Positions 13,133-49,126 of a stretch of DNA of 64,000 nt are shown here, piece by piece. Every line of letters starts with the position of its first letter. Positions within the stretch are counted from its first letter, which is position 1. Source of the DNA: Clostridiales bacterium (GTDB lineage: Bacteria; Bacillota; Clostridia; Christensenellales; UBA1242); assembly GCA_015055815.1 (NCBI GenBank), contig SVHM01000001.1:169774-233773 (forward strand), read 5' to 3'. The position numbers were made by a program, and so were the translations under genes. The notes under the pieces are model-generated. The model was not told the origin of the DNA. It was given only the letters and a program-made list of their open reading frames with translations, and searched no databases.

Positions 13133-14962
<1,830 letters not shown>

Positions 14963-33093: not shown

Positions 33094-33118
33094 ACAAAAA
33101 AAACACCCTAAGGGTGTT
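33094..33118 (-). terminator. terminator after the polytopic membrane protein gene
   Basis: Minus strand reads ACACCC-tta-GGGTGT followed by TTTTTTTT. Confidence 0.65.
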
Positions 33119-34068
33119 TATACTATATATTTCATATCATTAAGTTTATCTGAAATTTCTTTTTTCTTTGGGGTTATTACGTTATAAATATCAACATAAT
33201 ATCTCATACCTTGACCTTCATATGCGCATATCATACCATAAACATTATAAAGAAGATATGAAATCGGAATAGATATCAAAAGTCCCATAAACAATGTAAA
33301 TACACCAAGTATGAAGTTTAGTAAAAATACTGTTATAATTACCCCTACCATACCTGAGAAAACTCTTCCAAATCTTTTACCTAGCATCTTCACACTATAC
33401 TTTAAAGATTTAAAAACACCATAATTCATAATAACATAAGTTGGTACCCACATTACAAATACCGACTGAATTAATGAAATTAACAAAATAAATGCAATCA
33501 GCAAAACTATAATAGCAACAACAGATACAACCCAAGAAATACTAAACAACTTAAAGCTTAGTAAAAATAAATAACAAATAGCAAATTTAAACGGCAATGT
33601 TACAATATAATAACATAGTTGAATTTTTACGTTTTTACCAAAAGTATCACTAAAACTAGCGTAAAATCCCCTTTTATTCATACTTCCCATATAGAAATTA
33701 AGAGAATTACAAAGTGGCATTGTAACTAGATTTCTAGAAAATATTTCAAAGAAAGCAAATACAAGAGCAATTCCCAAAAAACTAAACCAAATAGTAGACA
33801 TATGACTAGTAATTGTTGCAAATACATTATTTACCATATCTCCAAGCGAAGTCATAAGTTCAGTTAAATTCAAAGTAGTCAAAAAGTCGGTATATACCTG
33901 CACCATATTAGAAAATACACCCGAATTAACAAGCATTACATAAATAGGATTAATAGCCAAATACAAAAAGAAAATAGAAATAGCAGACACAATCAAAAAA
34001 TAAAGCATCATTTTCCACACATGCTCAAAATTCGAAAATAAAATTTTTACTGAATTTCTATAGTTCAT
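33118..34068 (-). CDS. polytopic integral membrane protein, function unknown
   Basis: About 316 aa from ATG 34068 (AGGAGTGG Shine-Dalgarno). At least 6 long hydrophobic segments. Own terminator and separate transcription unit from the phage-like module. Confidence 0.6.
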   Translation of the reverse strand: MNYRNSVKILFSNFEHVWKMMLYFLIVSAISIFFLYLAINPIYVMLVNSGVFSNMVQVYTDFLTTLNLTELMTSLGDMVNNVFATITSHMSTIWFSFLGIALVFAFFEIFSRNLVTMPLCNSLNFYMGSMNKRGFYASFSDTFGKNVKIQLCYYIVTLPFKFAICYLFLLSFKLFSISWVVSVVAIIVLLIAFILLISLIQSVFVMWVPTYVIMNYGVFKSLKYSVKMLGKRFGRVFSGMVGVIITVFLLNFILGVFTLFMGLLISIPISYLLYNVYGMICAYEGQGMRYYVDIYNVITPKKKEISDKLNDMKYIV

Positions 34069-34151
34069 AACCACTCCTATCACAAATAGAATAACACAAT
34101 TTAAATAATTAATCAATAAGATTATTATCTTAAATAACAAATTATTTCATT

Positions 34152-34177
34152 AAAAAAAGGTGGCATAACACCACCTT
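34152..34177 (-). terminator. terminator closing the phage-derived late operon
   Basis: Minus strand reads AAGGTGG-tgttatg-CCACCTT followed by TTTTTTT. The stem overlaps the holin stop codon. Confidence 0.7.
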
Positions 34178-34418
34178 ATTTATTATCTTTTTTAATATCA
34201 TCCAACAATTCTTCAGTTGAACTATTTTGACTATCCGAAACTTTCTTTTTACTAACAAAACCAAATGAAATTAAAATAGCGCAAATTGCAAGTACCAAAT
34301 CTTGAATACCATCAGAATAAATTTTAATATCCAAAATTCCCGAAATGGCATTTACAATTAGCCCAATAATACCACTCAGTTCTAACCAAAATGATGTAGT
34401 TTTTAATTTATCCTTCAT
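34176..34418 (-). CDS. holin-like protein (2 TM, charged C-terminus)
   Basis: 80 aa. TM1 FWLELSGIIGLIVNAISGIL, TM2 LVLAICAILISFGFV, then a KKK/acidic tail. Last gene of the phage-like operon. Confidence 0.55.
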   Translation of the reverse strand: MKDKLKTTSFWLELSGIIGLIVNAISGILDIKIYSDGIQDLVLAICAILISFGFVSKKKVSDSQNSSTEELLDDIKKDNK

Positions 34419-34445
34419 TTTTTTCCACCTTTTTACTTCTTAATA

Positions 34446-34664
34446 CTACTTTTTTACTGTCAAGTTTTCTTTAATTTCTTGAACATCTTCCTTAACAGAC
34501 TTTACAATCTCCAAAGCATTACCCAATTGAGCAATAGTATCTTGATACCTATTCTCCCTTGTTTTACTATCCCTTAATTGATAAATAAGCAAACCTAAAA
34601 AAAGTACAGCAAATAAGCCATTACTTATAGCTAAATTAACTATTTGTTCCCACATAATCATCAA
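34446..34664 (-). CDS. BhlA/UviB-family holin-like peptide
   Basis: 72 aa. A single TM (GLFAVLFLGLLIYQL), then RDSKTRENRYQDTI and a coiled-coil tail. Resembles BhlA (GPFAVLFCWLLFYVMKTSKERE...) as I recall it. Confidence 0.65.
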   Translation of the reverse strand: MMIMWEQIVNLAISNGLFAVLFLGLLIYQLRDSKTRENRYQDTIAQLGNALEIVKSVKEDVQEIKENLTVKK

Positions 34665-35331
34665 TTCTACATTTTATAATGGGATATTTAATCATTAATT
34701 TTTTAAGTTCATCATTACTTATCAACTTATTAATATTACATTTATTTAAAAGATTATCTAAGACAGTACCAATAAGCCCCATGCGATAATTATTTATAAA
34801 TTTCTCACCAAACATCACAATAAGTTTCTTTTCATCAACGCAATCATCATTTTTCATATCTTTTAAAATATTTGAAAAATTAGTCATTTTTTCAGCATAT
34901 GCCTTTTCTTTAGAATTTATCTCATTATTAATTCCCCTAATAGAACTTTTCTCAAAATCAAGTTTATTGAGTACATCATCTAAAGATTTTTTAATTTTAA
35001 TAGTCATAGGCAAATCAAATTTTTCACGTGCATATTTTTGTTGAGTTAAATATGCAGTAACAATAAAATTTAATTCTTTTAATTTATTCTTAAAGTTAAT
35101 TGATAGATTATTAAACTCTTCAATTTCACCTTTCTCAAAAGCACTCATATTGTTTATAACAATTTCGTCATCTTTAATGTCTCCAACAAAATCTGAAACT
35201 TCTATAGAAAAACAAAAATTATCAATAGACTTGATTTCATTTAACAACTTATCTTCAACACTTTGTAATCCATAATCTAAATCACTTTTTAATTTTTCAA
35301 TTATTTTTTCTTTAAATCGATTTTTTTGCAT
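34636..35331 (-). CDS. phage-module protein, helical/coiled-coil rich (candidate tail plug/needle; speculative)
   Basis: 231 aa. K/E/L/N-rich, no TM, no lysin motif. GAGGAAAG Shine-Dalgarno. 29-nt overlap with the bhlA-like ORF. Confidence 0.45.
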   Translation of the reverse strand: MQKNRFKEKIIEKLKSDLDYGLQSVEDKLLNEIKSIDNFCFSIEVSDFVGDIKDDEIVINNMSAFEKGEIEEFNNLSINFKNKLKELNFIVTAYLTQQKYAREKFDLPMTIKIKKSLDDVLNKLDFEKSSIRGINNEINSKEKAYAEKMTNFSNILKDMKNDDCVDEKKLIVMFGEKFINNYRMGLIGTVLDNLLNKCNINKLISNDELKKLMIKYPIIKCRIDDYVGTNS

Positions 35332-35444
35332 AAACTTTCCTCGATTAATTTGTTTTTTAATTTAATTTTAAAATTCATCTTCTTAATTTCATAGTAATTA
35401 ATATTCATACTTTTATTTTTATATTTATACATTAATATTTATAA

Positions 35445-36944
35445 TCATTCAACCATACCAACACTAAATGTCGGACCAACGATTTTAACTCCACTATCAA
35501 CACTTTCAATAGCCACAGAAATCTTTTTACATTTTAAATAAAGTGGTATTTTTTGATATCTATTACTACCCTTAAGCGAAATCACCTTATTTTTACCATC
35601 ATATTCAATAATTAATTTACAATCAGAAGCAGTCATAATAGTCAAATCTTTAATTATTTTATAATTATTTGAACCAAAATCAAAATTAGGAGACTTCCAT
35701 ATTTTATTTGTTGCATTTCCATTTAACATACCAGACATATCCACATTCCCAAACTTTGAAATGTTAGAAGTACTATCCAAATACGTAACAAATATAGTAG
35801 AATCGTAAATATCATGATATTCTGACATACTTTCAACTTGCACACCCCTAAGAATTGAAAACGTATAATCATTTACATCAATTTTCAAAAGTGCATTATT
35901 TTTTGAAATAACTCTATTTTCACTTCCGATTTTCTTATTATCATTAAAGTTCAATTTACAAGCCAAATAATAATAACCATCAGCATAACCACCAAGAGCA
36001 TCGTCATTAGCCATATTTTTAAACATAAAATCAAGACCACTTAGTATCTTCTTACTTTTCGTTCCATCGAACTCATATAGACCATCTAACGTTAGATATA
36101 TAATTTTAGTACCACAAACTGAAATTGTTTTATTATAAATATAACTATTTCCAACAAATATTTGATTTACCTTAAATAACTCTTTTTCATTGTTATACGT
36201 AATTTTAGCTATATTAAAATCTCTAAAAACATAAAGATAACCATTGAATGATAATAATTTTGAAGCCATACCACTTATATCATCAAATTCAATTACACCA
36301 ACACCTTCTGAAGTTGAAGAGAAATCTACAGGACTAACATCACTACTATAAAAAACCTTATCTCTATCATTGAAAGTTGTTATGAATAGCCTATCATATA
36401 TATAACACATACTACTAATTTTTTCAGAGTTATCTATTTTTTGGGCTTCATCATAAACTACGGACCATATATACATACCATCACTTTTAGATACAAACAA
36501 AGCCACATCACGATTATTAATTTTACACTGAGTTACAATCGGCCTTTGTGAAAAATTTATATTTGGAATTAATTTAAAGTTAACATTATCAGCATGCAAA
36601 TACTTGTAGTAGAAATTACCAGATTTCATATAAGCAATAATAAACATATTTGCATGAATAGAAGAGCCATCCCATTCATTGTATAAAAACAAACTATCAA
36701 ACTCTTCATTATCAGGGGGTACAAATAAATATTTGTCTTGAATATTGTCAGGTACAATTCTAAGTGGATTATTATTTATACCCAACCCATCACTCAAAAT
36801 CCCCTTGTCAAAAGAATAATTATATGCACATACTCCATCACTTAATCTTAACAATTCATCAGGTATATTTATATTTAAATTATTACTTAAAGGAAAACAA
36901 CTATATTCTTTGTAACCATACTTATTACTTTTTATTCTTTCCAT
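35445..36944 (-). CDS. phage-module structural protein with beta-propeller-like internal repeats (candidate tail hub/nozzle; speculative)
   Basis: 499 aa. Recurrent beta-strand motifs every 40-50 aa: DGMYIWSVVYD, DRLFITTFNDRDKVFYSS, NGYLYVFRDFNIAKITY, GTKIIYLTLDGLYEFDG, ADGYYYLACKLNF, ALLKIDVNDYTFSIL. Confidence 0.5.
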   Translation of the reverse strand: MERIKSNKYGYKEYSCFPLSNNLNINIPDELLRLSDGVCAYNYSFDKGILSDGLGINNNPLRIVPDNIQDKYLFVPPDNEEFDSLFLYNEWDGSSIHANMFIIAYMKSGNFYYKYLHADNVNFKLIPNINFSQRPIVTQCKINNRDVALFVSKSDGMYIWSVVYDEAQKIDNSEKISSMCYIYDRLFITTFNDRDKVFYSSDVSPVDFSSTSEGVGVIEFDDISGMASKLLSFNGYLYVFRDFNIAKITYNNEKELFKVNQIFVGNSYIYNKTISVCGTKIIYLTLDGLYEFDGTKSKKILSGLDFMFKNMANDDALGGYADGYYYLACKLNFNDNKKIGSENRVISKNNALLKIDVNDYTFSILRGVQVESMSEYHDIYDSTIFVTYLDSTSNISKFGNVDMSGMLNGNATNKIWKSPNFDFGSNNYKIIKDLTIMTASDCKLIIEYDGKNKVISLKGSNRYQKIPLYLKCKKISVAIESVDSGVKIVGPTFSVGMVE

Positions 36945-36950
36945 ACAACA

Positions 36951-37526
36951 TTACAACCACCTTCTTTTAGGCATTGAAACACTTTTCTTATAATTCAAAA
37001 TAGACTTCATTGACACATCAAACTTATCTTTCCATGTTTTACCTTCATCAACAAATCCACTTATAAATAAATATTCCGCTACTACCAGTAGAGCAAAAAT
37101 ATTTTCATCAATTTTATGATAATAATTTATTTCACTTTCTATAGTAATTTCATCAGGAAAAATTGAATACTCAATAGTATATTCACCATTAGTAATTTCA
37201 ATACAATCACTTAAAATTTTATAGCCCGAAATTTTAACACCACTTCTTCTTATACAATCTATTCGCAATATTGAAGAAGTAGTAATTTCATTATAATTAA
37301 TCTTATTATTATAAACATTAATTTTTTTAGATAATTTTATTGGAAAATAATTTGTTGCAATATTACTATTTGCTAGATTACAAGCAACCATAATATTATT
37401 AATTTTTTCCAACGTATCATCATCGCTTTCAGCCTCATTATTTAGGTAATTTATTACATTATTTAAAGACAAAAATTTGCATGCATTTACCACTATGTTT
37501 TCAACCAACATACATACTACCTCCAA
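36951..37526 (-). CDS. phage-module protein (candidate head-tail adaptor)
   Basis: 191 aa. Position after the capsid gene. 10-nt overlap with the upstream ORF. Confidence 0.4.
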   Translation of the reverse strand: MEVVCMLVENIVVNACKFLSLNNVINYLNNEAESDDDTLEKINNIMVACNLANSNIATNYFPIKLSKKINVYNNKINYNEITTSSILRIDCIRRSGVKISGYKILSDCIEITNGEYTIEYSIFPDEITIESEINYYHKIDENIFALLVVAEYLFISGFVDEGKTWKDKFDVSMKSILNYKKSVSMPKRRWL

Positions 37527-37894
37527 TTACTTTTAAAAGCAGTTTTATTACTAAAATTTTTTGAAGAATTACTTGCAAACTTATAAATTTCTTTTAGATG
37601 ATATTTAGCATAATCTTTATACGATTTATTATAGTTACATTCAATATCTACATTGTTATTGTCAATATCATCAATGATTTTGTCAATATTATTAATACTA
37701 CTAAATAATACCAAATCTACAAATCTCACATCAAGATTTTCATAAGGACAAGTTAAACAATAAGTATTTTCTTGATTTTTATAATGCAATTCATACCTTA
37801 ATTTATTTGTATTATATACTACAAAATACCCATCATCTATTTCTTTAATTCTTTTACAAATATCAAATAAATCTTCATCAATTTTTATAAGCAT
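37517..37894 (-). CDS. phage-module small protein (candidate head completion)
   Basis: 125 aa. First ORF after the capsid hairpin. No motif recognised. Confidence 0.4.
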   Translation of the reverse strand: MLIKIDEDLFDICKRIKEIDDGYFVVYNTNKLRYELHYKNQENTYCLTCPYENLDVRFVDLVLFSSINNIDKIIDDIDNNNVDIECNYNKSYKDYAKYHLKEIYKFASNSSKNFSNKTAFKSNWR

Positions 37895-37919
37895 ATATCA
37901 CTCCTACTTTTAAAATAAT

Positions 37920-37951
37920 TATGCTGAGCAAATATAGTATTGCTCAGCATA
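37920..37951. terminator. perfect 12-bp hairpin immediately after the capsid gene (intra-operon attenuator candidate)
   Basis: TATGCTGAGCAA-8 nt loop-TTGCTCAGCATA. Minus-strand downstream context is ATTATTTTA, and the plus-strand context is TTTTT. Confidence 0.55.
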
Positions 37952-37964
37952 TTTTTAATATTTA

Positions 37965-39140
37965 TTAAGCACCAATTATACCAGATAATTTAGCTTGATT
38001 ATTTGGTCTATTACATAGAAGTTCAGCATACTTAACAAGAGTTGCAGTATATACTGGGTAACCTTCTTTTTGTTTAATGATTTTTCCATCATTACCTTCA
38101 AGCCATTGCCAATCACCCAATTGACAAAGTTCAAACTCTTTAGTGTTAAGCATAAACATTTCATCATCTTTTACAAATCTATCTGTAACTACTGGAATAC
38201 CATTATATGAAATAGCCTTAAAGCCACCTTGTAAATTCATAACATCTACATTCTTTCTATAAGCACTAATACTTTCTTGATATGCTCTTCTTACAGGAGC
38301 AGAACACACAATAAAGTCAATCTCACCACCGGCAACTTCTTCTATTTCATCAATAGCTCTCTGCATAACAGTTTCACTTAGTTCACCCACTTCAGTTTTT
38401 ACATATGGATTTAACCATTGATGCATAGTTTTATCAAGTCCATACAAAGTTGAAGAACTATCAAAAATTTTACCAAGACCAGTAATCTCATTGTTCAAAC
38501 CGTTAACAGTTGCTAAATGCATTCCATTGTAGTCGGCGTCAGCAAATCTATCAAATGAAATTTGTTTATTTACTCTATCAATATTTTGAACAGTAATTGG
38601 CTCGTATGAATTTGAATATGCTTTTTTATTGCTATTTACAAATCTACATACAGTATTTTCAATTAAATTTTTAACGTTATCAAGTTTTATAAACTCATCA
38701 GCAATTTCATTTGATGCTGATACAGTTGCAAGAATACCACTTCCATCGCCATATAGCATTCTACCTAGATTAAATGTACTAGATTTAATCAAACTTTCCA
38801 TTTCATCATTAAGAAGATTTACAAACGCACCCGCACTATTTTGAGAACATCTTATAGCCTTGTCTGTAATTTCAATAGTTCCGTATAAATTTTTCAAAGT
38901 CAATACAAATTGTTCATATTTCTTTCCATGACCCTTTGGAAGTTCACCATCTTCACTTCCTGCAGTAACACCACCACTTATTCCGTGTGATGTTGTTTTT
39001 CTAATTTCATTTCCATATACATTGTTTGTTGTTTGTTTAATTTTTGTAAGTAATGGGTTAGCACCAACATTTAATTGGTTGCCAATCACTCCTAAATACA
39101 CTGTTTTTAATGCATTATCTGCTGTTTCTAATGTTATCAT
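37965..39140 (-). CDS. phage major capsid protein (HK97-fold type)
   Basis: 391 aa. Position after the scaffold gene. LNDEMESLIKSSTFNLGRMLYGDGSGILA resembles the conserved capsid-family helix/loop region. Confidence 0.8.
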   Translation of the reverse strand: MITLETADNALKTVYLGVIGNQLNVGANPLLTKIKQTTNNVYGNEIRKTTSHGISGGVTAGSEDGELPKGHGKKYEQFVLTLKNLYGTIEITDKAIRCSQNSAGAFVNLLNDEMESLIKSSTFNLGRMLYGDGSGILATVSASNEIADEFIKLDNVKNLIENTVCRFVNSNKKAYSNSYEPITVQNIDRVNKQISFDRFADADYNGMHLATVNGLNNEITGLGKIFDSSSTLYGLDKTMHQWLNPYVKTEVGELSETVMQRAIDEIEEVAGGEIDFIVCSAPVRRAYQESISAYRKNVDVMNLQGGFKAISYNGIPVVTDRFVKDDEMFMLNTKEFELCQLGDWQWLEGNDGKIIKQKEGYPVYTATLVKYAELLCNRPNNQAKLSGIIGA

Positions 39141-39149
39141 ATTTATCTC

Positions 39150-39803
39150 CTAAAATTTAAACATATTCTCAACAACCCTTTTTGCATCTTCTAAACTACT
39201 AACATTATTACTAGAAGCTACCCCCCTAGTAACACCCGAATTATTAATATTTATCGGACTTTGAAAGAATTGAAGAGAATTGACATATTCTTTAATTATT
39301 TTGTTTTTGATTTTTTCATTTGAGAATATAAACTTCTCTAAAAATTCTTCATCTTCCACAAGTTCTTCTGTTTTTCTATATTTCTTTTCCAAAACCCTAC
39401 TATATGCTTTTTCCAAGCCATCTTCTTGATTTTTCAAATCTTCATCACTAATTATTTCATTGGTTATTTCTTCAACAAAATCACTTGCTTTTTCGTGAGA
39501 TTGCAGAAACTCACTTATTTTTGATTGCCAAGCAAATTCATTTTCTGAAAGTTTCGTTTCTTGTTGTTCGGGCACACATTTCAACTCACTTTCTTGCAAT
39601 TTTTTCTCTACTTCACTCAATTTTTGACACTTGCGAGTAAACTCACCTTGTAACTCGTTATAAGCATCAAGCAAAGTTTCAGCAGACTTAAATTTGCCCA
39701 GTGGAGAGCCTTCAGTACTTGTAATTCCATTTTCCACATCTGTCGCTACAGTTTGAATATCTGTACTTTCTGGTTGTTCTCCAACATTATTTATTTCTTC
39801 CAT
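39150..39803 (-). CDS. phage scaffolding protein
   Basis: 217 aa. Acidic and helical. Located between portal and capsid. No prohead protease gene is present. Confidence 0.65.
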   Translation of the reverse strand: MEEINNVGEQPESTDIQTVATDVENGITSTEGSPLGKFKSAETLLDAYNELQGEFTRKCQKLSEVEKKLQESELKCVPEQQETKLSENEFAWQSKISEFLQSHEKASDFVEEITNEIISDEDLKNQEDGLEKAYSRVLEKKYRKTEELVEDEEFLEKFIFSNEKIKNKIIKEYVNSLQFFQSPININNSGVTRGVASSNNVSSLEDAKRVVENMFKF

Positions 39804-39818
39804 ATTTTATTCTCCATT

Positions 39819-41705
39819 TTATTTTTCATTTTCTACTTTATTTAAATTTTCTAAAAAACTTTTATGTTCTTTCACGTGATTAAGCATACTTTCAAGTAAG
39901 TATGGTTTTTTCTTCATTGCTTTTTCAAGTTCACTTCCAAGCATAAATGCCGTATGTTCGGCAATATGTATATCATGGTCGTCAATATCAAGTGGAGACT
40001 TTATTTCATTATTAATTAGTAAATTCACATTTTCTTTTGTTGCATTATTAGTTTGAAGAGCCTTTATGTCATGACTAGTCTCCCAAATACCAAAACCCAA
40101 CTGCTCAAGAATTTTACTTCTCATACTATTACTCAATTTTCCATCTTCATCATTTAAAAGACCTGCATTTAATATTTCAAAAATCATACTTCTCTTTTGA
40201 GCCAATGTCTCATTCATTTCATTTTCCGTTTCAAATACCACTTCTTCACTATTAATGTCTGAGTTTTTCCAATAAAACAACTCAACAGAGCCATTTTCTC
40301 CAACAATTCTAGTTGTATGTTCTGTCATTGCATACTGTTTATAAAGCCTTAAAATTTGTTTTGCAATTTCTTTTGCACAATATCTAATTTCTTCAGCACT
40401 CGAAACAAGTTTTGCTTCATCTTGCTCAATTAACAATTGCAAAGCCACACCACTAATATTTCCGTGAGAAACAGATGCAGACTTTAATAAATCACTTACA
40501 CCTGAAATTGTTACAAACTCTTCAAGTAACGCTTCTTCTTCAGCCTTAAAATCAATAGGCAAATTGTCTGAAGACAACATTTTAGGAATATTAGCACCCT
40601 GTCTATAAATCAATACTTTACCCGGCGACAAACCTTCTTCTTCCAAATTTTCAATATCCATAGACCCATCTTCAACAGCAAGCACACCCATTGTAAGTCT
40701 ATTTAAATATTCATGTTTTCTATTCTTTACCGCATTAAACGATCTTTGAATAGGTATACACCTTTCAATTACACTATTACCCCAAAAACAATTTGGCATA
40801 GGAATACTTACTTGTTTAATGAACGGAAAACCCCTTTTATTTTCAGCACGATTTATATATGGCAATTCTCCCATGTATATAAGTTTATTTCCAGCAATTA
40901 TAATAAGCCTACCATTTGGATATTCAACAGTTGGCTTTACATATTTTTCAAGAACCAACACTTGATCATTTTTTACTTTTTTAGCCAGAGAACTTGACAT
41001 TGTATTATAGCCAAGACCGCCAGCGCTACCAACACTATCAAGAGTATACACGTCGATAGATTTACCTTCAACTTCAACACCCCAAATATTTTTGACAGCA
41101 TCTTTGTGAAAGCTTCTCGCATAAATGATTGACATACAATCATCAATGCTAGTATAAGTATTACTATCAGGGTAAATTTCAAAAGGACTAACAACACTTA
41201 ATTCAACATCTCCTTCTTTCAATTCTCTACCAATCTCATCTCTTCCAACAATTTTGCCACCATTATTATTCCAATCAATTTTGTAAAAAACAGTTCCGCA
41301 AATTTCACTCCAAAGGGTTCCTTGAGACAAAATTTTACTAATATTTAAATTATGACTTACAGCTTTTAAGATTTTTTTACTAGTTTTAGCACAAGCAATA
41401 TCATTCTCTTCATCTGAAAATGGCACTACTGTAAGAGACGGTCTAACCCTAGCAAGTTTAGCAAGCCTTACTTCAACCAAATTTGCAATATGATTATAAA
41501 CTTCTCGTTCTTGCCAAAAATACTGTTTACCATACTCCATAATTTCACCACTTGGTGAAATGTAGCAATACTGGTTTCCCAAAAAGAAATTAATATTTAG
41601 TTGCCAATTATTTTCGAACGATTTTCTTTCCATTTGCCTATACTTAAAGTCTTCAAGCACTTCATTTACGATTTTTTCTTCAATTTCATCTTTATTAATT
41701 TTCAT
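39819..41705 (-). CDS. phage portal protein
   Basis: 628 aa. Position after terL. N-terminal ERKSFENNWQLNINFFLGNQY motif typical of portal N-termini. Confidence 0.8.
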   Translation of the reverse strand: MKINKDEIEEKIVNEVLEDFKYRQMERKSFENNWQLNINFFLGNQYCYISPSGEIMEYGKQYFWQEREVYNHIANLVEVRLAKLARVRPSLTVVPFSDEENDIACAKTSKKILKAVSHNLNISKILSQGTLWSEICGTVFYKIDWNNNGGKIVGRDEIGRELKEGDVELSVVSPFEIYPDSNTYTSIDDCMSIIYARSFHKDAVKNIWGVEVEGKSIDVYTLDSVGSAGGLGYNTMSSSLAKKVKNDQVLVLEKYVKPTVEYPNGRLIIIAGNKLIYMGELPYINRAENKRGFPFIKQVSIPMPNCFWGNSVIERCIPIQRSFNAVKNRKHEYLNRLTMGVLAVEDGSMDIENLEEEGLSPGKVLIYRQGANIPKMLSSDNLPIDFKAEEEALLEEFVTISGVSDLLKSASVSHGNISGVALQLLIEQDEAKLVSSAEEIRYCAKEIAKQILRLYKQYAMTEHTTRIVGENGSVELFYWKNSDINSEEVVFETENEMNETLAQKRSMIFEILNAGLLNDEDGKLSNSMRSKILEQLGFGIWETSHDIKALQTNNATKENVNLLINNEIKSPLDIDDHDIHIAEHTAFMLGSELEKAMKKKPYLLESMLNHVKEHKSFLENLNKVENEK

Positions 41706-41928
41706 TTTCTTTCACCCTTTTTGACACAATTTTTTTGTTTAACATATTCTCAGGACTTTTAGGCACAATGTTTTTACCAATGGTTTTATAAAGTTCATTC
41801 ATACATGACTTACATAGATACAATCCAATTGATTTTATAAATCCTTCATTTTCAATCTTTACATCTGCAAAATTTTTACAATTTGGCATATCACATTTTA
41901 TCTTTATTTTACAATCAACTAAGTTCAT
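41695..41928 (-). CDS. small Cys-rich (zinc-ribbon-like) protein
   Basis: 77 aa. CKIKCDMPNC ... CKSC. Overlaps both neighbours (translational coupling). Confidence 0.45.
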   Translation of the reverse strand: MNLVDCKIKIKCDMPNCKNFADVKIENEGFIKSIGLYLCKSCMNELYKTIGKNIVPKSPENMLNKKIVSKRVKENEN

Positions 41929-42203
41929 TTTTTCTCCTTTAACTTACTTAATAATTTTTGTTTTTCTTTTTCTAACTCTTCATCTGTCAAGTTATACAGT
42001 TCATTTTCTTCCCCCTTTTCTTCTAATAACATTTGTATAGCAGATAAATCTGGTGGATAAGACTTAGTACTGGTTTTCCTTTTTTGCAAAACAAAGTCGT
42101 CACCCGAGAACCCATACTCTTCTACAACTTCTTGAGTAGTAAAACCAATCGCTTTATCCATCAAAGCTTTTTCAAGTTTTTTCCTTTCATTTTCTTTCTT
42201 CAT
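41925..42203 (-). CDS. small charged protein, possible non-canonical small terminase/DNA-binding component
   Basis: 92 aa. KRKTSTKSYPPDLSAIQMLL resembles the K..PPD..A..FWL motif of some TerS proteins. It lies downstream of terL, not upstream. Confidence 0.3.
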   Translation of the reverse strand: MKKENERKKLEKALMDKAIGFTTQEVVEEYGFSGDDFVLQKRKTSTKSYPPDLSAIQMLLEEKGEENELYNLTDEELEKEKQKLLSKLKEKK

Positions 42204-42246
42204 ACTGCATCCAAAAAGGTAATTGAAAATTTCAATTACCTTACCC

Positions 42247-43686
42247 TTAATACCTTATATTTTTTAACTTGTTTAACTTAATTAATTTTTCTTTGTTTTT
42301 TTGAATAATGTTTTTATCATTTTTTATATTTTTATTTTCTGGTCTATTCATTATGTAATATCGAAGTTCATCCAATGCATGATCATCTCGTTTAACAGGC
42401 AAATCATTATTTCCCCAAAAGTAACCTTTAATTTCCCTTATCAAATTAACACAATTTTTAAATATAAATAATTTCCTTTCTCCAAGTGCGTTTTTAAAAT
42501 AACTTTTTACTTTATTTATTCCGGAAAACATATCTTTATTAACCAATGGGCTAGTAAGTATACCGTTCTCGTAAAAAAGCTCAGTTACAGATTTTTCACT
42601 GGCCAATGTTTTTTGATTTGCCGCACTATCAATAATAGCTTCAATTTTGCCATTTTTAATAGGCCAATTCAAACTTTTTGAAATGTCTTTTATTCTATTT
42701 GAATGATACTCAACAGTTTTTTCTTTTTCATAATGCTCTGCTATTACATAAACATTACCATCATAATCACTTGCATACCAATGACAACTAAGGGGATTAT
42801 GCAAACCTGGATCAATTGATATTTTATCATACCAATCAATCGGTACCATAAAAGGCTCTATAACATTATATCTTTCATCAAACTCATTATATACAAGCCC
42901 CGTTCCACTAGTAAAATTTCCATATTTCCTACTATTTAACTCATCTTCACTAAGACTTTGTGTTAACTTTTTAATTTCATTTTTATTAAGATAGGGATTG
43001 TCCGCCCACTCCATTTGTTCATACCAAACATCTTCATCATTTCCTTCATTTAAATAAATTGTTCTATATACCCACGTCAAACCTTTTAGTGGTGTCATTG
43101 TTCCAAAAATTATCCCACATTTATCCAAAACTCTCATTTTGCATTCGATATAAATATCTTCTGGTGGCTCTTCATCAAACCAAACATAATCAAGAGAAGT
43201 TCCTTGGAATTTTTCTCTTCCTTGATCACAACTTTTGAAGCCTATTTTACTCGTTGTGCCAAATACATTTTTAACATAAATAGTATCAATTACACCACTA
43301 CTTGCACTTCCCTTTCTTCCAGATATCATTACAATGTCTGAAATCCATTCCTTTTTGAGATAACTTAATATTTTACTTTGAGCAACATCTCTTTGAACTT
43401 GTTGACTAAGCGATACTACCCAACCTTCTGTTGGTTTATTTTCTTTGTATGGGTGTATTCCCCTTGCAAGCCATACAGTCTCAACAGCCCCACATTCAGT
43501 TTTACCACTTCTATTTCCACCAAACACCCACCTATTTTTCTTGTCGCAAGTATGAAATTTTAATTGTTTTTCATGTTTTATCTTACCAGAATTATACCCA
43601 TCAATTTTATTGTCCCTTTTTCTTCTCTCTTGTTCAGTTTCTATTTGGCGAATTTTCAAAATTATTTCTTTTTCTGTCACAATCAC
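42247..43686 (-). CDS. terL: phage terminase large subunit
   Basis: 479 aa. Walker A GGNRSGKTECG, Walker B-like LDYVWFDEEP, C-terminal nuclease region with DHALDELRY. GTG start and no ATG in the first 60 codons. Confidence 0.9.
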   Translation of the reverse strand: MIVTEKEIILKIRQIETEQERRKRDNKIDGYNSGKIKHEKQLKFHTCDKKNRWVFGGNRSGKTECGAVETVWLARGIHPYKENKPTEGWVVSLSQQVQRDVAQSKILSYLKKEWISDIVMISGRKGSASSGVIDTIYVKNVFGTTSKIGFKSCDQGREKFQGTSLDYVWFDEEPPEDIYIECKMRVLDKCGIIFGTMTPLKGLTWVYRTIYLNEGNDEDVWYEQMEWADNPYLNKNEIKKLTQSLSEDELNSRKYGNFTSGTGLVYNEFDERYNVIEPFMVPIDWYDKISIDPGLHNPLSCHWYASDYDGNVYVIAEHYEKEKTVEYHSNRIKDISKSLNWPIKNGKIEAIIDSAANQKTLASEKSVTELFYENGILTSPLVNKDMFSGINKVKSYFKNALGERKLFIFKNCVNLIREIKGYFWGNNDLPVKRDDHALDELRYYIMNRPENKNIKNDKNIIQKNKEKLIKLNKLKNIRY

Positions 43687-43754
43687 TCCATTTATTACAA
43701 AAATTTATTTAATGAAAATTTAATGTTTTTGTATTTTTTATATATAATTTAAAT

Positions 43755-44468
43755 ATGTTAAAATTAATCATTTATCTTATTTTGATATGTAATATTTCCA
43801 TGCCAACAATCACTGTTTTTGCAAGTGAAAATTTTGCTCGAGCCGAAACAACTATTTATCTTTATAAAACCAGTACTGATAATGAAAATATCTCAAACAT
43901 CTATTGCATGATTGAGAAAGGATATTTTGTTCAAATACTTAATGAAGAAAATAATTATTACTCAGTTTATTATAATGGCATAAATGGTTTTGTAAAAAAG
44001 AATGATGTAAAGGAAATTATCAACACTCCTAATACACCATATCCGAGTAATATTCAAATAATTATAGGAAGCGATTGTAATTTAAGAAGCTCACCCACAA
44101 CCAATTCAAATACTAATAATATTATTGCTACAATTAAAAAAGATGAAAGCAATATAAACTTTATTGGAAGAATATTTTCGCAAGAAGTAATAGATTTTGG
44201 CGGTACTGTATGGTATTTAATAGAATATGACGGCAAAACCGGATATATTTATAATAAATACGTCAAATCAATAACACCAATATATGAAAATAACGAGAAT
44301 GCAAATTATAAAAACTCAATCAATTCATCAAGCGAAAATCCTTTAACACAAACCCCAAGTCTAATAATTGTATTAATTCTTTTTTTACCAAGTATATTCC
44401 TAATTTTCTTACTATATTTACCAAGAAAATTGAAAAAACCTAGTAAAATTTCTAATGACAAATATTAG
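43755..44468 (+). CDS. surface protein: signal peptide, two SH3b-like domains, C-terminal TM anchor
   Basis: 237 aa. N-terminal hydrophobic leader ending VFASE. GINGFVKKNDV and KTGYIYNKYV SH3b-type strand motifs. C-terminal LIIVLILFLPSIFLIFLLYL plus a basic tail. No Shine-Dalgarno is visible. Confidence 0.6.
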   Translation: MLKLIIYLILICNISMPTITVFASENFARAETTIYLYKTSTDNENISNIYCMIEKGYFVQILNEENNYYSVYYNGINGFVKKNDVKEIINTPNTPYPSNIQIIIGSDCNLRSSPTTNSNTNNIIATIKKDESNINFIGRIFSQEVIDFGGTVWYLIEYDGKTGYIYNKYVKSITPIYENNENANYKNSINSSSENPLTQTPSLIIVLILFLPSIFLIFLLYLPRKLKKPSKISNDKY

Positions 44469-45003
44469 AATTGTCAATCACACATACTTTAGACACTTGA
44501 TTAAACATCCTCCCAACAACTACACGTTTTAAAAAATCATCTGCTATATTTGAAGACACAATTTCGTTGTAAACACCTAAAAACCATGGCTCTGTTTCAT
44601 AATCTTGAAAGAAATTCTCGTCGTATCCAAGTTCAATCATTTTATTGGTAAAACTTTGAAGGGCAGAAACCTTTCTTCTAAAAAACGTTCTAAGACTAAT
44701 ATTCATAAGCTCTGCGACTATAACACTCGTCACACCATCCACAAAAGTAAGGACCAATAACCTCCTATCATTCAATGAAATACCCGTCAAAGCATCTTCC
44801 ACAGCTACTTTAAGATTTATCAATTTCCTTTTTCGCTCTATAAACTCAATCATTTGCCCCGTCTGTAAATATGTAGATTGATATCTTTGCAATCCTTCAC
44901 TATTGCTACTAGTTCCAGTTTTTAAAATTCGTTTATCGACCGTCTCCGCCATAGACTCCAAATATCTATATATAGACAATGCTGACTTACTCCAGTATTT
45001 CAT
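44452..45003 (-). CDS. RinA/ArpU-like phage late-gene activator (sigma-70 region-4-type HTH)
   Basis: 183 aa from ATG 45003 (GGGAGG Shine-Dalgarno). LNDRRLLVLTFVDGVTSVIVAELMNISLRTFFRRKVSAL is a region-4-like HTH. The general layout resembles RinA as recalled. Position is upstream of terL. Confidence 0.5.
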   Translation of the reverse strand: MKYWSKSALSIYRYLESMAETVDKRILKTGTSSNSEGLQRYQSTYLQTGQMIEFIERKRKLINLKVAVEDALTGISLNDRRLLVLTFVDGVTSVIVAELMNISLRTFFRRKVSALQSFTNKMIELGYDENFFQDYETEPWFLGVYNEIVSSNIADDFLKRVVVGRMFNQVSKVCVIDNSNICH

Positions 45004-45017
45004 AAAACCTCCCAACG

Positions 45018-45071
45018 ATTGAAAATTTCAATGTCACCTATAGTATAATGTATAAAATCATCCAAAGTCAA
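45018..45071 (-). promoter_or_regulatory. promoter plus palindromic operator of the activator gene
   Basis: Minus strand reads TTGACT (45071..45066), 18-nt spacer, TATACT (45047..45042). The palindrome ATTGAAA-A-TTTCAAT (45018..45032) then lies between the -10 and the Shine-Dalgarno. Confidence 0.45.
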
Positions 45072-45299
45072 AACATTGTGTCATTTTTTTGTATAAATTT
45101 TTCAATTTTTGTAAAATTTGTAAATTTTTGAAAAATTAATTACTTATAGTAATTATATTTTCAAACTTTTCAAAAAAAATTTTCAAAAAATTTTTAAAAT
45201 CCAATAAAAACAATCACAAAAACATAAAATAAGGTATTAATTTCATTGTCAAATATTCAAAAAATTGCTAAAATTTAAATAGACTGAAAGGAGAGAACA

Positions 45300-47894
45300 A
45301 TGAAAAAAATACTGCTTGCCTTAATAATACTTGCAACAGCTGTTTTTGTTGCTCCTTTTTCATATAAAGTACAAGCAGAAGAAAGTATAAAAATTGAAAC
45401 TTTATATCCATCTTACATAAAAAATGAAAAGATTGAAAAAGTCATAGAATATGCCGACCTTACCGATATTTCACTCATGACAACAGACAATAATTATATT
45501 GCATACGCATCAAATGACAAGTTAAATATATTTGATAATTCGAATAAAACAACTAAAGAAGTTGCCAACATAGAAAAAATTAAAAAGATAAAATTTTTCA
45601 ATTATTCTATTATTTGTGCATCAAATAATACAATTAACTTAATAAATCCACAAAATGCAACCAACACCCTAACTCTTTCTGAAATTTCCTATTCAGATAA
45701 TGCAAAAGTTAATTTTTATTTTGATAGCAACACTCTTTTTATTGGAATAATAGATACACATTTATATATATATAAGATAAATATTACAAATAATGATATA
45801 TCAAATTCGGATATAATAAAGAAATCAGTTGAATTGAATTTATCAGAACATACACCATTTGCACTAACATTAAATCATGATTTTTGTTATATTTTAAGCG
45901 AAAATAATGATAAATCAAACACAGCCGACCCAATTTATTTATGTAAAGTTAATATTTCAACAGGCAATATCGCAAAAGAAGAAGGATTTAAAAAAGACGC
46001 TAAATTAATTGAAGTATTTAATTATAACGGTAACGATTACTTTATTACATTTATTAACGATTTATTTATTCTAGATAGTAATTTGAATGAGATTATAAGA
46101 ATTTCTACTAGTTCAAAAAAATCAAACAATAGCGATATTTTCAATTTCCCACTTGGCACTCAAATTGATAGCAATTTCCCTATTCAATCAATTTCTGATG
46201 TTCAAGTGTTAAATAATAAACTATTTGTTTGCGATAGTGACCACAAAATAATAGGCGAATTTAACTTAAGTCTCGATAAAGATACAAACAAAATCAAATT
46301 AGTATCAAATAAAGTTTTAATTTCTAGTTCAAACTCAGATATAGGTAGATTTGATAATGTAAACAACATTTATCATTATAGTAATAAAATATATATTTCA
46401 GATACCAATAATAATAGAATACAGATTATTGACAATGAAACATCAAATATAGACTGCATTAAAAATACTAATATAAAGCAAGTAGCAGTCGACAAAAACG
46501 GACATATATTTTATATTTCAACAGACAATTCAAACACAGTTAATAAATATATATCTGAAGAAGAAACAACTTCAATAAATAAATATAAATCAAGTTTATT
46601 TGGTGAAATTATACAATTAGAATTAGATAACACAAATAAACTTTATTTACTTGATTATACACACAAAAAAATATATATATTTACAACAGATTTTGAATTT
46701 GAAAAATATATATCACTACCAACCATAACAAACAATGCAAAACTTGAATATGTTAAAGATATTAATAAATTAGTTTTACTAGATAACAATGTATTATATT
46801 TAGTTAACGAAGCCGACTTTAGTAGTAGTACAACTTTCACATTAAATAACTGCACAGATATAACTACAGGACTATCACAAATATTCGCTTTAAATGGAAA
46901 TAAAATTGAGATTATTTCAGCAAAAGATGGCGCATTTACTAAAAAACAAACTATAGAAAATAATCATTTTGATAACTTTAGTACAATTTCTTATGATATT
47001 GCAAACGGAAAACTTTATGGTTTTAACATAAAAAGACAATGCTTAGAATTTATTTCACTAGACACCAATTTACCATTTGACAACTCAAGCATTTCAAATG
47101 AAGTAGCATTAGAAATAAAAAATCAAGCAAAACCACTAACTTCACTAAATACAAGTGCAATTTATCAATATCCTTATAATTTAGGCACATGCTATCATAC
47201 AAATGAAATAGTTGACGTAATTGCAATTGAAGAATTTGATATATATTACAAAGTGTTACTTAATTATAACGACACTGCAACCGTCGGATATGTAGAAAAA
47301 GAAGAAGCAAATGTAATAAAAATTACTAGCGATCCCGTTTCTGTAAGAGTTACCAATCCACAAATACCAGTTTATAAATACCCAACTCTACTTGCATATG
47401 GCAGTTCAGCTATTACAGTTGACACTCTTGATCTAAACACTATTATTACATTGTCAGCTCAATTCCCAGTAAGCATTGACGGAAAAGACTTCTACATATA
47501 TATTTATGGTGATAAATTTGGATATATATTTAGTGCAGACGTAGTATTAAGTACCGGCAATAATCTAACTTATTTCCACAATGAAAACGCAACAATAAAC
47601 TCGTTTAACGAAAGTAGTGTAACTGTTTACAATGAAGATTTAACAACCAAAGTTGACGATATCGCCAACAATAAAAGAATATATGTAGAAAACTTTGATA
47701 AAAAATCAGAGTGGACACAAATCATTTATAAAACTGATAACAATCAAGAAAAAATTGGTTATATAAAGACAGAATATATCAATATGGACGGTCTTGCATC
47801 AAATCAAATAATTCTTATTGTTGTAATGAGCATTTCAATTATATTACTAATATCAATTATAACCGTTTACTTCGTTATAAAAAAGAAAAAATAA
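45300..47894 (+). CDS. large surface protein: signal peptide, NHL/beta-propeller-like repeats, three SH3b-like domains, C-terminal TM anchor
   Basis: 864 aa. Strong Shine-Dalgarno GAAAGGAGAG. Leader ILLALIILATAVFVAPFSYKVQA. NHL-like motifs LFVCDSDHKIIGEF, YISDTNNNRIQIID, LYLLDYTHKKIYIF. SH3b-like VGYVEKEE, FGYIFSADV, IGYIKTEYI. C-terminal IILIVVMSISIILLISIITVYFVIKKKK. Confidence 0.65.
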   Translation: MKKILLALIILATAVFVAPFSYKVQAEESIKIETLYPSYIKNEKIEKVIEYADLTDISLMTTDNNYIAYASNDKLNIFDNSNKTTKEVANIEKIKKIKFFNYSIICASNNTINLINPQNATNTLTLSEISYSDNAKVNFYFDSNTLFIGIIDTHLYIYKINITNNDISNSDIIKKSVELNLSEHTPFALTLNHDFCYILSENNDKSNTADPIYLCKVNISTGNIAKEEGFKKDAKLIEVFNYNGNDYFITFINDLFILDSNLNEIIRISTSSKKSNNSDIFNFPLGTQIDSNFPIQSISDVQVLNNKLFVCDSDHKIIGEFNLSLDKDTNKIKLVSNKVLISSSNSDIGRFDNVNNIYHYSNKIYISDTNNNRIQIIDNETSNIDCIKNTNIKQVAVDKNGHIFYISTDNSNTVNKYISEEETTSINKYKSSLFGEIIQLELDNTNKLYLLDYTHKKIYIFTTDFEFEKYISLPTITNNAKLEYVKDINKLVLLDNNVLYLVNEADFSSSTTFTLNNCTDITTGLSQIFALNGNKIEIISAKDGAFTKKQTIENNHFDNFSTISYDIANGKLYGFNIKRQCLEFISLDTNLPFDNSSISNEVALEIKNQAKPLTSLNTSAIYQYPYNLGTCYHTNEIVDVIAIEEFDIYYKVLLNYNDTATVGYVEKEEANVIKITSDPVSVRVTNPQIPVYKYPTLLAYGSSAITVDTLDLNTIITLSAQFPVSIDGKDFYIYIYGDKFGYIFSADVVLSTGNNLTYFHNENATINSFNESSVTVYNEDLTTKVDDIANNKRIYVENFDKKSEWTQIIYKTDNNQEKIGYIKTEYINMDGLASNQIILIVVMSISIILLISIITVYFVIKKKK

Positions 47895-48448: not shown

Positions 48449-49126
48449 TTATCTAACATAATAATTTTCTAAAACACCTACAGTAGTTTCCATTGTATCA
48501 ACATCCACTTCTTCTTTAATAAGTTCAATTTTATTTAAACTAACTTCATAAGCAGTTTTTGTTATCAATTCATCATTAACCTTTTTCTGATAATCTCTAC
48601 TTTGAATACGTCCTTGAACTACAACCTTGTCACCTATATTAAAGTTTTTTACAAATCTTGCATTCCTTCCCCAAGCTATACAAGGCAAATAATCACTCTT
48701 ATTATAACATCTATTTACAGCAAGTAACACATCAGATATTTCTCTCTTAAAAGGTGTTGTTCTAAATACTGGCTCTTTACAAACATATCCCACAATCTCT
48801 ATATGATTAGGATTATCATTTTCATTATAAGGCATCAATTCTCTCAAGAAAACAGTTAGCATAAGTTTACTCTTACCATCTACAAGTTTATTATAACTTC
48901 TAAATTGACCACTTCCACTTATCATATCCCCTTTACTAATTGGATATTCCTGCAAAAGCCTTTCACTAATTGTAACAGGGATTATATCATAAGTGTCCGA
49001 TAGTCTTGTTACCTTCAAATCAAACTCATAAAAACCTTCATTACAAATAGAGTGAGTAAACTCCAACTCACTAACAACTTCTCCAGATATATTTACTTTG
49101 TTATTTTTCATTAGGTCGTAATCCAT
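48449..49126 (-). CDS. tandem OB-fold single-stranded DNA-binding protein paralogue
   Basis: 225 aa. The second half, NHIEIVGYVCKEPVFRTTP...LLAVNR...CIAWGRNARFV..GDKVVVQGRIQSRDYQ, follows the canonical SSB pattern. The first half shows the same pattern more weakly (NKVNISGEVV...KGDMISGSGQFRSYN). No acidic DDxPF tip. Confidence 0.6.
   Translation of the reverse strand: MDYDLMKNNKVNISGEVVSELEFTHSICNEGFYEFDLKVTRLSDTYDIIPVTISERLLQEYPISKGDMISGSGQFRSYNKLVDGKSKLMLTVFLRELMPYNENDNPNHIEIVGYVCKEPVFRTTPFKREISDVLLAVNRCYNKSDYLPCIAWGRNARFVKNFNIGDKVVVQGRIQSRDYQKKVNDELITKTAYEVSLNKIELIKEEVDVDTMETTVGVLENYYVR

Follow-up and report, generated by a model that had tools for sequence, protein, structure and literature searches.

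A P22-like cluster of head, packaging and tail genes beside rnj: a candidate domesticated, gene transfer agent-type element of Christensenellales

A podovirus-like gene transfer agent (GTA), FpGTA of Faecalibacterium prausnitzii, has been experimentally validated in Faecalibacterium (Borodovich et al., Nat Commun 2026; preprint November 2024; PMC12946183). The 10.5 kb FpGTA operon holds ten open reading frames (ORFs), which include a small terminase subunit (TerS)-like protein without a DNA-binding domain, the large terminase subunit (TerL), a portal, a capsid protein and proteins of short-tailed phages, and its capsids of ~40 nm contain ~8.5 kb of host DNA. A second operon, 125 kb away, carries fibre, receptor-binding protein, holin and endolysin genes, and both FpGTA and RcGTA are multi-locus systems (PMC12946183). 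The FpGTA capsid protein (RCH50849.1) is annotated as “N4-gp56 family” and a Prp-like protease gene lies between portal and capsid (PMC12946183, Supplementary Data 2). The same paper reports GTA-type packaging in Christensenellaceae/Christensenellales metagenome-assembled genomes (MAGs), with peaks of 4.1 and 7.1 kb for HGM11616 sp900761075 and 6.3 kb for QANA01 sp019420265, and assigns no gene cluster to this packaging of 4–7 kb host fragments (PMC12946183). Here we describe a 64-kb window, the whole stretch of DNA that was analysed, from a “Clostridiales bacterium” MAG (G+C ~29%; public locus tags E7345_*), which holds a compact cluster of phage head, packaging and short-tail genes close to rnj, the gene for RNase J.

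Our favoured reading, held with moderate confidence, is that this cluster is an anciently domesticated, P22-like element of the GTA type that has lost its phage lifestyle functions and is owned by its host, the owning lineage probably being Christensenellales. Two marks of a GTA are present. The first is a chromosomal cluster of phage structural and packaging genes that lacks replication, integration and lysogeny-control genes. The second is vertical inheritance together with purifying selection, seen in synteny that persists down to 46% rnj identity and read with two caveats, a near-saturated synonymous divergence (dS) and the existence of loci away from rnj. By analogy with described GTAs, the cluster would package and transfer host DNA. 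GTA particles take up essentially random host DNA in pieces too short for the entire cluster; for this element, the truncated TerS and the published 4–7 kb packaging in Christensenellaceae MAGs would be indirect evidence of that, set beside a late operon of ~9.5 kb and a conserved unit of ~14.8 kb. The first-pass annotation of this DNA had expected a short-tailed version in a Clostridia-type genome to be new, which overstated the case given the published FpGTA (PMC12946183). A podovirus-type GTA in gut Clostridia is already known, and what is not yet described is this lineage and the rnj locus. A 2026 murine-gut preprint reports further GTA candidates in other Clostridia families, and full-text literature searches returned no description of this Christensenellales cluster.

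With FpGTA the cluster shares a compact operon of ~10 kb and ~10 ORFs in a gut Clostridia chromosome, a TerS-like protein lacking a DNA-binding domain, TerL, portal, capsid and short-tail proteins, and the lack of lifestyle genes; FpGTA is near-ubiquitous in its host clade. Their gene orders are broadly alike. The two differ in several respects. Compared by annotation, the FpGTA capsid is of the “N4-gp56” type, whereas the major capsid protein (MCP) of the window matches NF033394 only, with no N4-family match at E <= 0.01. The portal–capsid interval holds a Prp-like protease gene in FpGTA and a scaffold-like gene here. Lysis genes sit in the second locus of FpGTA, whereas here holins and a regulator lie within the same cluster, and the TerS-like gene is downstream of terL, whereas FpGTA operon I is listed as TerS-like, TerL, portal, Prp-like, MCP. 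The host orders also differ, and FpGTA particles and their DNA have been shown experimentally whereas this element is known from genes alone. When ten GC-rich capsid representatives were looked up for FpGTA or Faecalibacterium homologues, none came from Faecalibacterium and one from Maliibacterium. FpGTA and this element are of the same kind and apparently of different lineages, set apart by annotation.

The likeness to RcGTA of Alphaproteobacteria lies in a domesticated head–tail cluster free of lifestyle genes, co-divergence with the host, purifying selection, a TerS without DNA-binding specificity and release by lysis. RcGTA differs in being siphovirus-like, with a tail tube, a tape measure, HK97-type head genes and a prohead protease, in its control by the host through CtrA/GafA, and in its unrelated origin.

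Head, packaging and nozzle genes

The conserved unit spans ~33118–47894 (~14.8 kb), larger than the 11 kb first delimited, and contains a late operon of ~9.5 kb. Every minus-strand ORF listed by the first-pass annotation is present at its coordinates, and family matches agree with its calls of a GTG-started TerL, a portal, a capsid protein and two holins. Its description of a minus-strand block holds for the late genes; it fails for a plus-strand gene (43755–44468) that sits between the regulator gene and terL and encodes a 237-aa SH3 protein. All genes of this section are on the minus strand.

TerL (477 aa, 42247–43680) matches Terminase_6N (4e-11), Terminase_6C (4e-5) and phrog_2 (5e-29), and its GTG start lies six bases 3' of GGAG. 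In 50 sequences, conservation reaches at least 95% for its Walker A motif (GGNRsGKTECGA), its Walker B motif (VWFDEEPP) and its nuclease Asp motifs; no clear conserved promoter motif was seen upstream of terL in relatives. Just downstream of terL, a 92-aa ORF (p92, 41925–42203) matches phrog_309, “terminase small subunit”. In known TerS proteins, DNA recognition sits in the N-terminal part. Because the match of p92 is limited to the C-terminal part, profile positions 196–268 of 319, and the same holds in 45 of 52 family members, p92 is a TerS remnant minus the usual N-terminal DNA-recognition part. The earlier statement that TerS is missing is correct in that no such gene lies upstream of terL and no full TerS is encoded, and has to be amended for this truncated downstream version. 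A further conserved ORF of 77 aa (p77, 41695–41928), which overlaps its neighbours at both ends, is found in 41 loci and has no family match.

The portal (628 aa, 39819–41705) is of the P22/SU10 type (P22_portal 5e-13, SU10_portal 1e-7, phrog_156 1e-28). The 217-aa product of 39150–39803 is probably the scaffolding protein, called by position in the portal–MCP interval, like P22 gp8; it is found in 82 loci and has no family match. The MCP (391 aa, 37965–39140) is of podovirus type, with matches to NCBIfam NF033394 capsid_maj_Podo (2e-74; 250 bits against a cutoff of 80) and phrog_14242 (3e-48). Directly 3' of the capsid gene lies a hairpin with a 12-bp stem (37920–37951), where the P22 annotation likewise places a stem-loop behind the coat gene. 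The missing prohead protease, which had been counted among the lost functions, is no sign of loss, because heads of the P22 type assemble on a scaffold and normally do without such an enzyme.

The main tail-side gene is the 499-aa ORF (35445–36944), found in 63 loci. Its AlphaFold (AF2) model, built from a 23-sequence alignment, reached a pLDDT of 85 and a pTM of 0.87, and a Foldseek search of the PDB matched it to the tail of Pseudomonas phage Pa223 (9nwi_Y, E 2e-20, TM 0.75), with further matches to Vibrio phage VP1, Ralstonia phage GP4, P22 gp10, T7 gp12 and SU10. Matching predicted viral structures in BFVD include ones named “P22 Gp10”. A 51-sequence profile had given only a marginal match to the SU10 tail (E 0.038), later borne out by the fold search, and sequence identity to the P22-like counterparts is only 9–13%. 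By its modelled fold, the 499-aa protein is a podovirus tail nozzle (hub) of the P22 gp10/T7 gp12 class, and the cluster is not tail-less, as first proposed. In NCBI the window’s protein is annotated as hypothetical and assigned to a “Clostridiales bacterium” MAG; the exact protein is recorded in 37 blocks of the public collection, and all 23 of the 23 contigs that were read have the same neighbourhood.

Two small genes separate the capsid gene from the nozzle gene. The product of 37517–37894 (p125, 125 aa) is conserved in 51 loci and negative in profile searches; its position suggests a head-completion or connector protein. The next ORF (p191 in the longest-ORF call), directly upstream of the nozzle and found in 57 loci, starts at 37511 in the public gene call and then encodes 186 aa (36951–37511); the 37517/37526 overlap, earlier read as a sign of maintained expression, is a product of the longest-ORF call. 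The 186-aa protein occupies the position of P22 gp4 and, on that ground, may be the head-to-tail adaptor. Searches of PDB and PHROG with p191 gave nothing significant, hhalign of its profile against P22 gp4 was negative, and among 51 relatives compared with PHROG there was a single weak match to “head-tail adaptor” (0.006), which is not conclusive. A word-indexed homologue search returned one protein, and the AF2 model, made from 2 sequences, was unusable (pLDDT 34).

Between the nozzle gene and the holin genes, genomes carry 0, 1 or 2 genes. The first is hypervariable (327–474 aa), with mostly singletons in an all-against-all BLAST, which is the pattern expected of a receptor-binding protein. 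It lies directly after the nozzle gene at 13684–14778 of locus L001, and equivalents occur in L003, L006–L008, L010, L014, L016, L018, L022–L024 and L071. The second is a DUF7934 gene, present in 25 of 37 entries (the window and 36 related loci). In the window this interval holds p231 (231 aa, 34636–35331), a short, diverged DUF7934 member that groups with 24 positionally equivalent DUF7934-type ORFs. Neither the variable genes behind the nozzle nor the DUF7934 members had a match in PHROG scans, and sequence and profile searches of the PDB with the 125-aa, 191-aa, 340-aa and DUF7934 proteins gave nothing significant.

The order of these genes is that of the P22 late operon: TerL, portal, scaffold(-sized ORF), coat, hairpin, small ORF, adaptor-sized ORF, gp10-type nozzle and ~230-aa ORF. 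In portal, capsid and nozzle the cluster shares fold families with P22-like podoviruses, SU10, Pa223, VP1 and GP4 among them. Unlike these phages, the cluster occupies a fixed site, is inherited vertically as far as the comparisons below indicate, and has no full TerS, tailspike, ejection protein, endolysin, integrase, immunity or replication functions, the P22-like prophage complement for which family scans found no member. Integrase, repressor and replication domains were found neither in the cluster and window flanks (Pfam, PHROG, NCBIfam) nor in the Pfam tables of four related loci, and no tRNA or att-like direct repeat was found at the locus; the absence of integrase, repressor and replication genes and of an att-like repeat, reported by the first-pass annotation, held up in these scans.

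These absences bear on whether the cluster could be a capsid-forming satellite, of the kind of the capsid-forming phage-inducible chromosomal islands (cf-PICIs), that makes its own heads and takes tails and induction signals from a helper phage. Like such islands it is small and compact, with its own capsid, portal and terminase genes and no long tail genes, and the murine-gut preprint warns that such clusters can be confused with GTAs. cf-PICIs differ in having an integrase, a regulator, replication genes and att sites, in using the tails of a helper phage, and in being mobile and sporadic, none of which is seen here; scans of the cluster and its flanks found no AlpA-type regulator, primase, replication gene, integrase or att site. 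The cluster’s own podovirus nozzle would leave no need for a borrowed tail, the TerS remnant lacks the part that confers specificity, and the site is fixed and co-diverges with rnj. We consider a satellite very improbable.

Distribution, inheritance and selection

Relatives of the MCP are widespread. About 6,000 were found at E <= 1e-5 in a 90%-clustered collection, many of them on contigs of 100–440 kb, and the protein matches 252 clusters of a 50%-identity library at E <= 1e-30. With each GTDB species represented by one genome, at least 587 genomes had a related MCP; the best 80 of these matches are in gut MAGs of Clostridia from animals and humans, many of them labelled Christensenellales, Christensenellaceae, Candidatus Borkfalkia or Candidatus Fimimonas. 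The core (TerL, p92, p77, portal, scaffold, MCP, p125, p191 and nozzle) was recovered with tblastn of the window proteins in most of 84 loci. In one MAG (L009, 2290–4293) the module lies beside a gene for a TraG/VirD4-type coupling protein of a type IV secretion system (T4SS) and not beside rnj, and may there adjoin an integrative conjugative element.

Both flanks of the module in the window are core genes: rnj, an O-methyltransferase (MTase), a U32 peptidase, a sigma factor and MgsA on one side (Pfam/domain scans), and an SSB-like gene, a polysaccharide deacetylase and parC/parE on the other. Many loci keep the same flanks, SSB and deacetylase upstream and rnj–MTase–U32 downstream, even where RNase J is only 46–55% identical to that of the window, so that the proposed check for synteny at this locus found the module at rnj in deeply diverged species. 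In Mantel comparisons with the distances of the adjacent rnj, the portal and TerL gave r 0.85 (p 0.0005) and MCP r 0.45. Mean divergence was 0.35 for TerL, 0.39 for MCP and 0.45 for RNase J, which makes TerL and MCP better conserved than RNase J. Taken together, the module looks to have been inherited vertically with its host.

An RNase J scan of metagenome contigs gave 30 loci with an ~50% identical rnj that keep rnj–MTase–U32 and lack the module. The 864-aa and SH3 surface genes and the membrane-protein gene described below are also absent upstream of rnj in these 30 loci, which serve as an outgroup control and not as an occupancy test among close relatives. Because they are absent from the outgroup loci, the module and the surface and membrane genes look like a clade-specific insert.

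Selection was estimated against L086, the nearest relative found (88% identity in MCP, 94% in RNase J), at a dS of 1–2, near saturation, so that the ratios are approximate. The ratio of nonsynonymous to synonymous divergence (dN/dS) was 0.083 for TerL, 0.089 for the portal, 0.082 for MCP and 0.10 each for p92 and p77, compared with 0.037 for rnj and 0.14 for the methyltransferase. Among the other genes, the BhlA-family holin gave 0.065 and the 237-aa SH3 protein 0.12. Identity to L086 was 57% for p125, 41% for p191, 48% for the nozzle and 38% for p231, with dN/dS of 0.30–0.51, the highest value being that of p231. The comparison, which the first-pass annotation had proposed, indicates strong purifying selection on the head and packaging genes.

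A defective prophage remnant, functionless and still intact by chance, would account for the missing lifestyle genes and for tail-side genes that evolve fast and vary in content. It fits poorly with a locus that stays occupied across ~50% rnj divergence, with head and packaging dN/dS of ~0.08–0.10, with TerL and MCP better conserved than rnj, and with core ORFs that are all open in dozens of species. We therefore give this explanation very little weight, and the earlier view that the cluster is intact and not decaying stands. The sequence comparisons support a cluster that is neither an autonomous prophage nor in decay.

No match was obtained when the block was searched as DNA against 50,697 phage records, and the protein search of phage records gave only Actinobacteria-phage capsids at 24–27% identity. 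In IMG/VR, close relatives (45–73% identical) are mostly short fragments of the same module, and contigs of 30–60 kb carry capsids that are 27–41% identical. One of these, contig L136, has a larger TerL and portal together with tail and internal-virion proteins and looks like a real phage. Many “viral” contigs of 4–16 kb among L087–L150 are fragments of this chromosomal module. Viral databases thus appear to hold the domesticated cluster mislabelled as uncultivated viruses, and virus-prediction tools evidently call it viral.

A larger relative of the cluster is found in Maliibacterium massiliense, a cultured, Christensenellales-related organism (L167 = LR026983.1, 2215459–2236634). Its gene order, in aa, is TerL 493, 172, 254, portal 680, 405, MCP 391, 136, 189, 477, 807, DUF7934 301, 704 and 546+, with the ORFs of 807 and 704 aa being extra. 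This cluster may represent a less reduced or still phage-like state. The phage-like relatives (L136 and Maliibacterium) fit descent from a podovirus followed by reduction.

The larger Maliibacterium cluster, the multi-locus make-up of FpGTA and RcGTA, and a view of 64 kb of the genome would also suit a still-autonomous phage or element of which the window shows one locus, its other modules lying elsewhere in the genome. Temperate tailed phages with split genomes are, to our knowledge, not known, and the evidence for vertical inheritance and synteny applies equally to such an element. Additional fibre or endolysin loci would suit the GTA model and not contradict it. We rate this explanation as highly unlikely.

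The first-pass annotation had left GTA-like and satellite-like readings side by side. Synteny, co-divergence and selection point to the former, a domesticated GTA-like element; the latter is not upheld for a fixed, vertically transmitted site that lacks integrase, replication and att functions. The satellite, decaying-prophage and tail-less readings were accordingly rejected, on the fixed site and co-divergence, on purifying selection and on the encoded nozzle, respectively.

Regulation, lysis, surface proteins and neighbouring genes

At the head of the cluster, a minus-strand gene (44452–45003) encodes a late-gene regulator of 183 aa, counted from the ATG at 45003, with likeness to sigma-70 region 4 and DUF1492. 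It matches phrog_36, “transcriptional regulator”, at 6e-7; the matches to Sigma70_r4_2 (0.004) and DUF1492 (0.0075) are both below Pfam cutoffs. The gene has a ribosome-binding site (GGGAGG) and is conserved at the same position in 29 loci. The late regulators of Gram-positive phages (RinA/ArpU/LtrC/DUF1492), a superfamily that Quiles-Puchalt and colleagues are said to have defined in 2013, are reportedly small activators resembling sigma region 4 whose genes lie directly upstream of the packaging module. The position of the cluster’s regulator would fit membership, for which its Pfam matches are sub-cutoff. A sigma-70-like promoter (TTGACT-18-TATACT, minus strand, 45042–45071) lies 5' of the gene and is called from its consensus match only. 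The divergent intergenic region between the regulator and the 864-aa gene contains AT-rich imperfect direct repeats of the types TTTTTGAAAA and AAATTTGTAAA (45086–45200), which are candidate operator sites.

Two holin genes close the late operon, both on the minus strand. The first (34446–34664) encodes a BhlA-family holin (Holin_BhlA 1e-15) found in 36 loci. The second (34176–34418) encodes a holin-like membrane peptide of 80 aa that matches the phrog_297 holin (5e-6) and, weakly, Phage_holin_1. An intrinsic terminator (34157–34177, minus strand; 9-bp stem, then a T-run) ends the operon, as the first-pass annotation had noted. Beyond the holins follows a minus-strand gene for a polytopic membrane protein (316 aa in the public call, 33118–34068) with its own terminator (33101–33119). 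It is present in 26 module loci, some of them not beside rnj, and has no Pfam, PHROG or PDB match.

Two surface proteins are encoded on the plus strand. The 237-aa SH3 protein (SH3_3 9e-11) has a signal peptide and a C-terminal transmembrane (TM) anchor, and the position and orientation of its gene between regulator and terL are kept in 32 loci. The gene at 45300–47894 is divergent from the regulator gene; its 864-aa product combines a signal peptide, a region of NHL-type beta-propeller (NHL match to the sensor propeller of PknD, E 0.0015) and, at the C-terminus, a TM anchor. Positional orthologues of 841–867 aa, minus-oriented, occur in L001, L003, L040 and L086. Identity of the 864-aa protein to relatives is 25–32%, and it evolves fast, with 47% identity where MCP has 88%. 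A partial Mantel test gave no sign that this protein co-evolves with the nozzle (partial r -0.27, p 0.9). The 864-aa protein is a candidate accessory or receptor-side component. Across the clade, the SH3 and NHL-propeller genes keep their places among the regulator gene and terL, in opposite orientation to these.

Two of the neighbouring genes have unusual N-terminal regions. The SSB-like protein (225 aa, 48449–49126, minus strand) has its SSB domain only at residues 107–202, after an N-terminal extension of ~100 aa; it matches phrog_26861 at 9e-32, is kept just upstream of the module in relatives (51–87% identity) and could be a second, specialised SSB. The parC-like ORF (1011 aa, 51285–54320, minus strand) begins right at the parE stop, and its DNA_topoisoIV domain is reached only at residue 231. 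Either an unusual extension of ~200 aa precedes the domain or the ORF has been called too long.

Proposed working of the element and its meaning

In the working model, the sigma-like regulator at the head of the cluster would switch on one long late operon. Given the families recognised, the scaffold, capsid protein and portal would form a procapsid, and TerL, with its invariant motifs, would act with the TerS remnant in filling heads by a headful mechanism, mainly with host chromosome, by analogy with the TerS of RcGTA and FpGTA. The 125-aa and 186-aa proteins, placed by position, would close the portal with the nozzle, itself recognised by fold, and make a stubby tail. The two holins would then lyse a subpopulation of cells and free the particles; the endolysin must come from elsewhere, because none is encoded nearby. 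Finally, the particles would carry host DNA to related cells, as GTAs do.

Several points weigh against this reading. The cluster is known here from genes alone, and its link to the published Christensenellaceae packaging would be one of analogy. No endolysin was identified in the cluster or nearby, and no tail fibre, receptor-binding protein or ejection protein was recognised in the cluster. For p125 and the 186-aa protein, no homologue with a known function could be detected. The hypervariable post-nozzle gene is missing from the window, whose DUF7934 copy is short and diverged. The tail-side genes evolve much faster than the head genes, a comparison made, like all of the dN/dS ratios, at near-saturated dS. 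Some module loci are not beside rnj, one lying by BipA and one by the T4SS coupling-protein gene, with no integrases near. Because of these loci and the larger, possibly prophage-like Maliibacterium version, the history is not purely vertical.

A domesticated particle could also serve a use other than transfer, as a PBSX-like killer, in programmed lysis with release of DNA or cell contents, or as a decoy for phages, with packaged DNA as a by-product. PBSX-like elements of Bacillus are likewise chromosomally fixed, phage-derived particles of a Gram-positive host that package host DNA and are released by lysis; they differ in being myovirus-like, with a contractile tail and a much larger cluster, and in killing without DNA injection. 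The unrecognised receptor-binding and ejection functions, and the loss of the hypervariable post-nozzle gene in the window, would suit such a use, as would the filing of the BhlA family by PHROGs under bacteriocin production or immunity. The FpGTA paper leaves the option of a use other than transfer open for its own particle (PMC12946183). Against such a use, the strong conservation of the TerS remnant and of the ATPase and nuclease motifs in TerL suggests that packaging itself is under selection. We know of no killing activity of a podovirus nozzle comparable to that of a contractile tailocin. Overall, we regard a non-transfer particle as unlikely, though distinctly less so than a satellite, a remnant or a split element, and retain the GTA-type reading.

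A bolder form of the GTA-type reading is put forward tentatively, with rather less than even confidence. It holds that a separate ancient domestication of a P22-like podovirus gave rise to a new GTA (viriform) family fixed beside rnj, which is passed on vertically across much of Christensenellales and lies behind the 4–7 kb packaging of host DNA in Christensenellaceae of the human gut. The two fast-evolving, surface-anchored proteins and the membrane protein, whose genes are interleaved with the particle genes clade-wide, would then be part of the system, for example in immunity or on the side of the recipient or receptor.

The number of known GTAs is very small, and detailed work has been almost entirely on those of Alphaproteobacteria. 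Gut transductomics shows that a large part of the bacterial DNA carried by virus-like particles of the gut is from Clostridia, by GTA-like packaging; Faecalibacterium is the only case in which a gene cluster has been linked to particles. The candidate described here is a single-locus, podovirus-type cluster, conserved order-wide at a defined chromosomal position, and offers a concrete target for knock-outs, expression studies and the re-annotation of hundreds of genomes. The L167 cluster of Maliibacterium massiliense is a possible experimental entry point. From phage-like relatives to minimal versions, these clusters would form a natural series in which to study the reduction of a phage to a host organelle.

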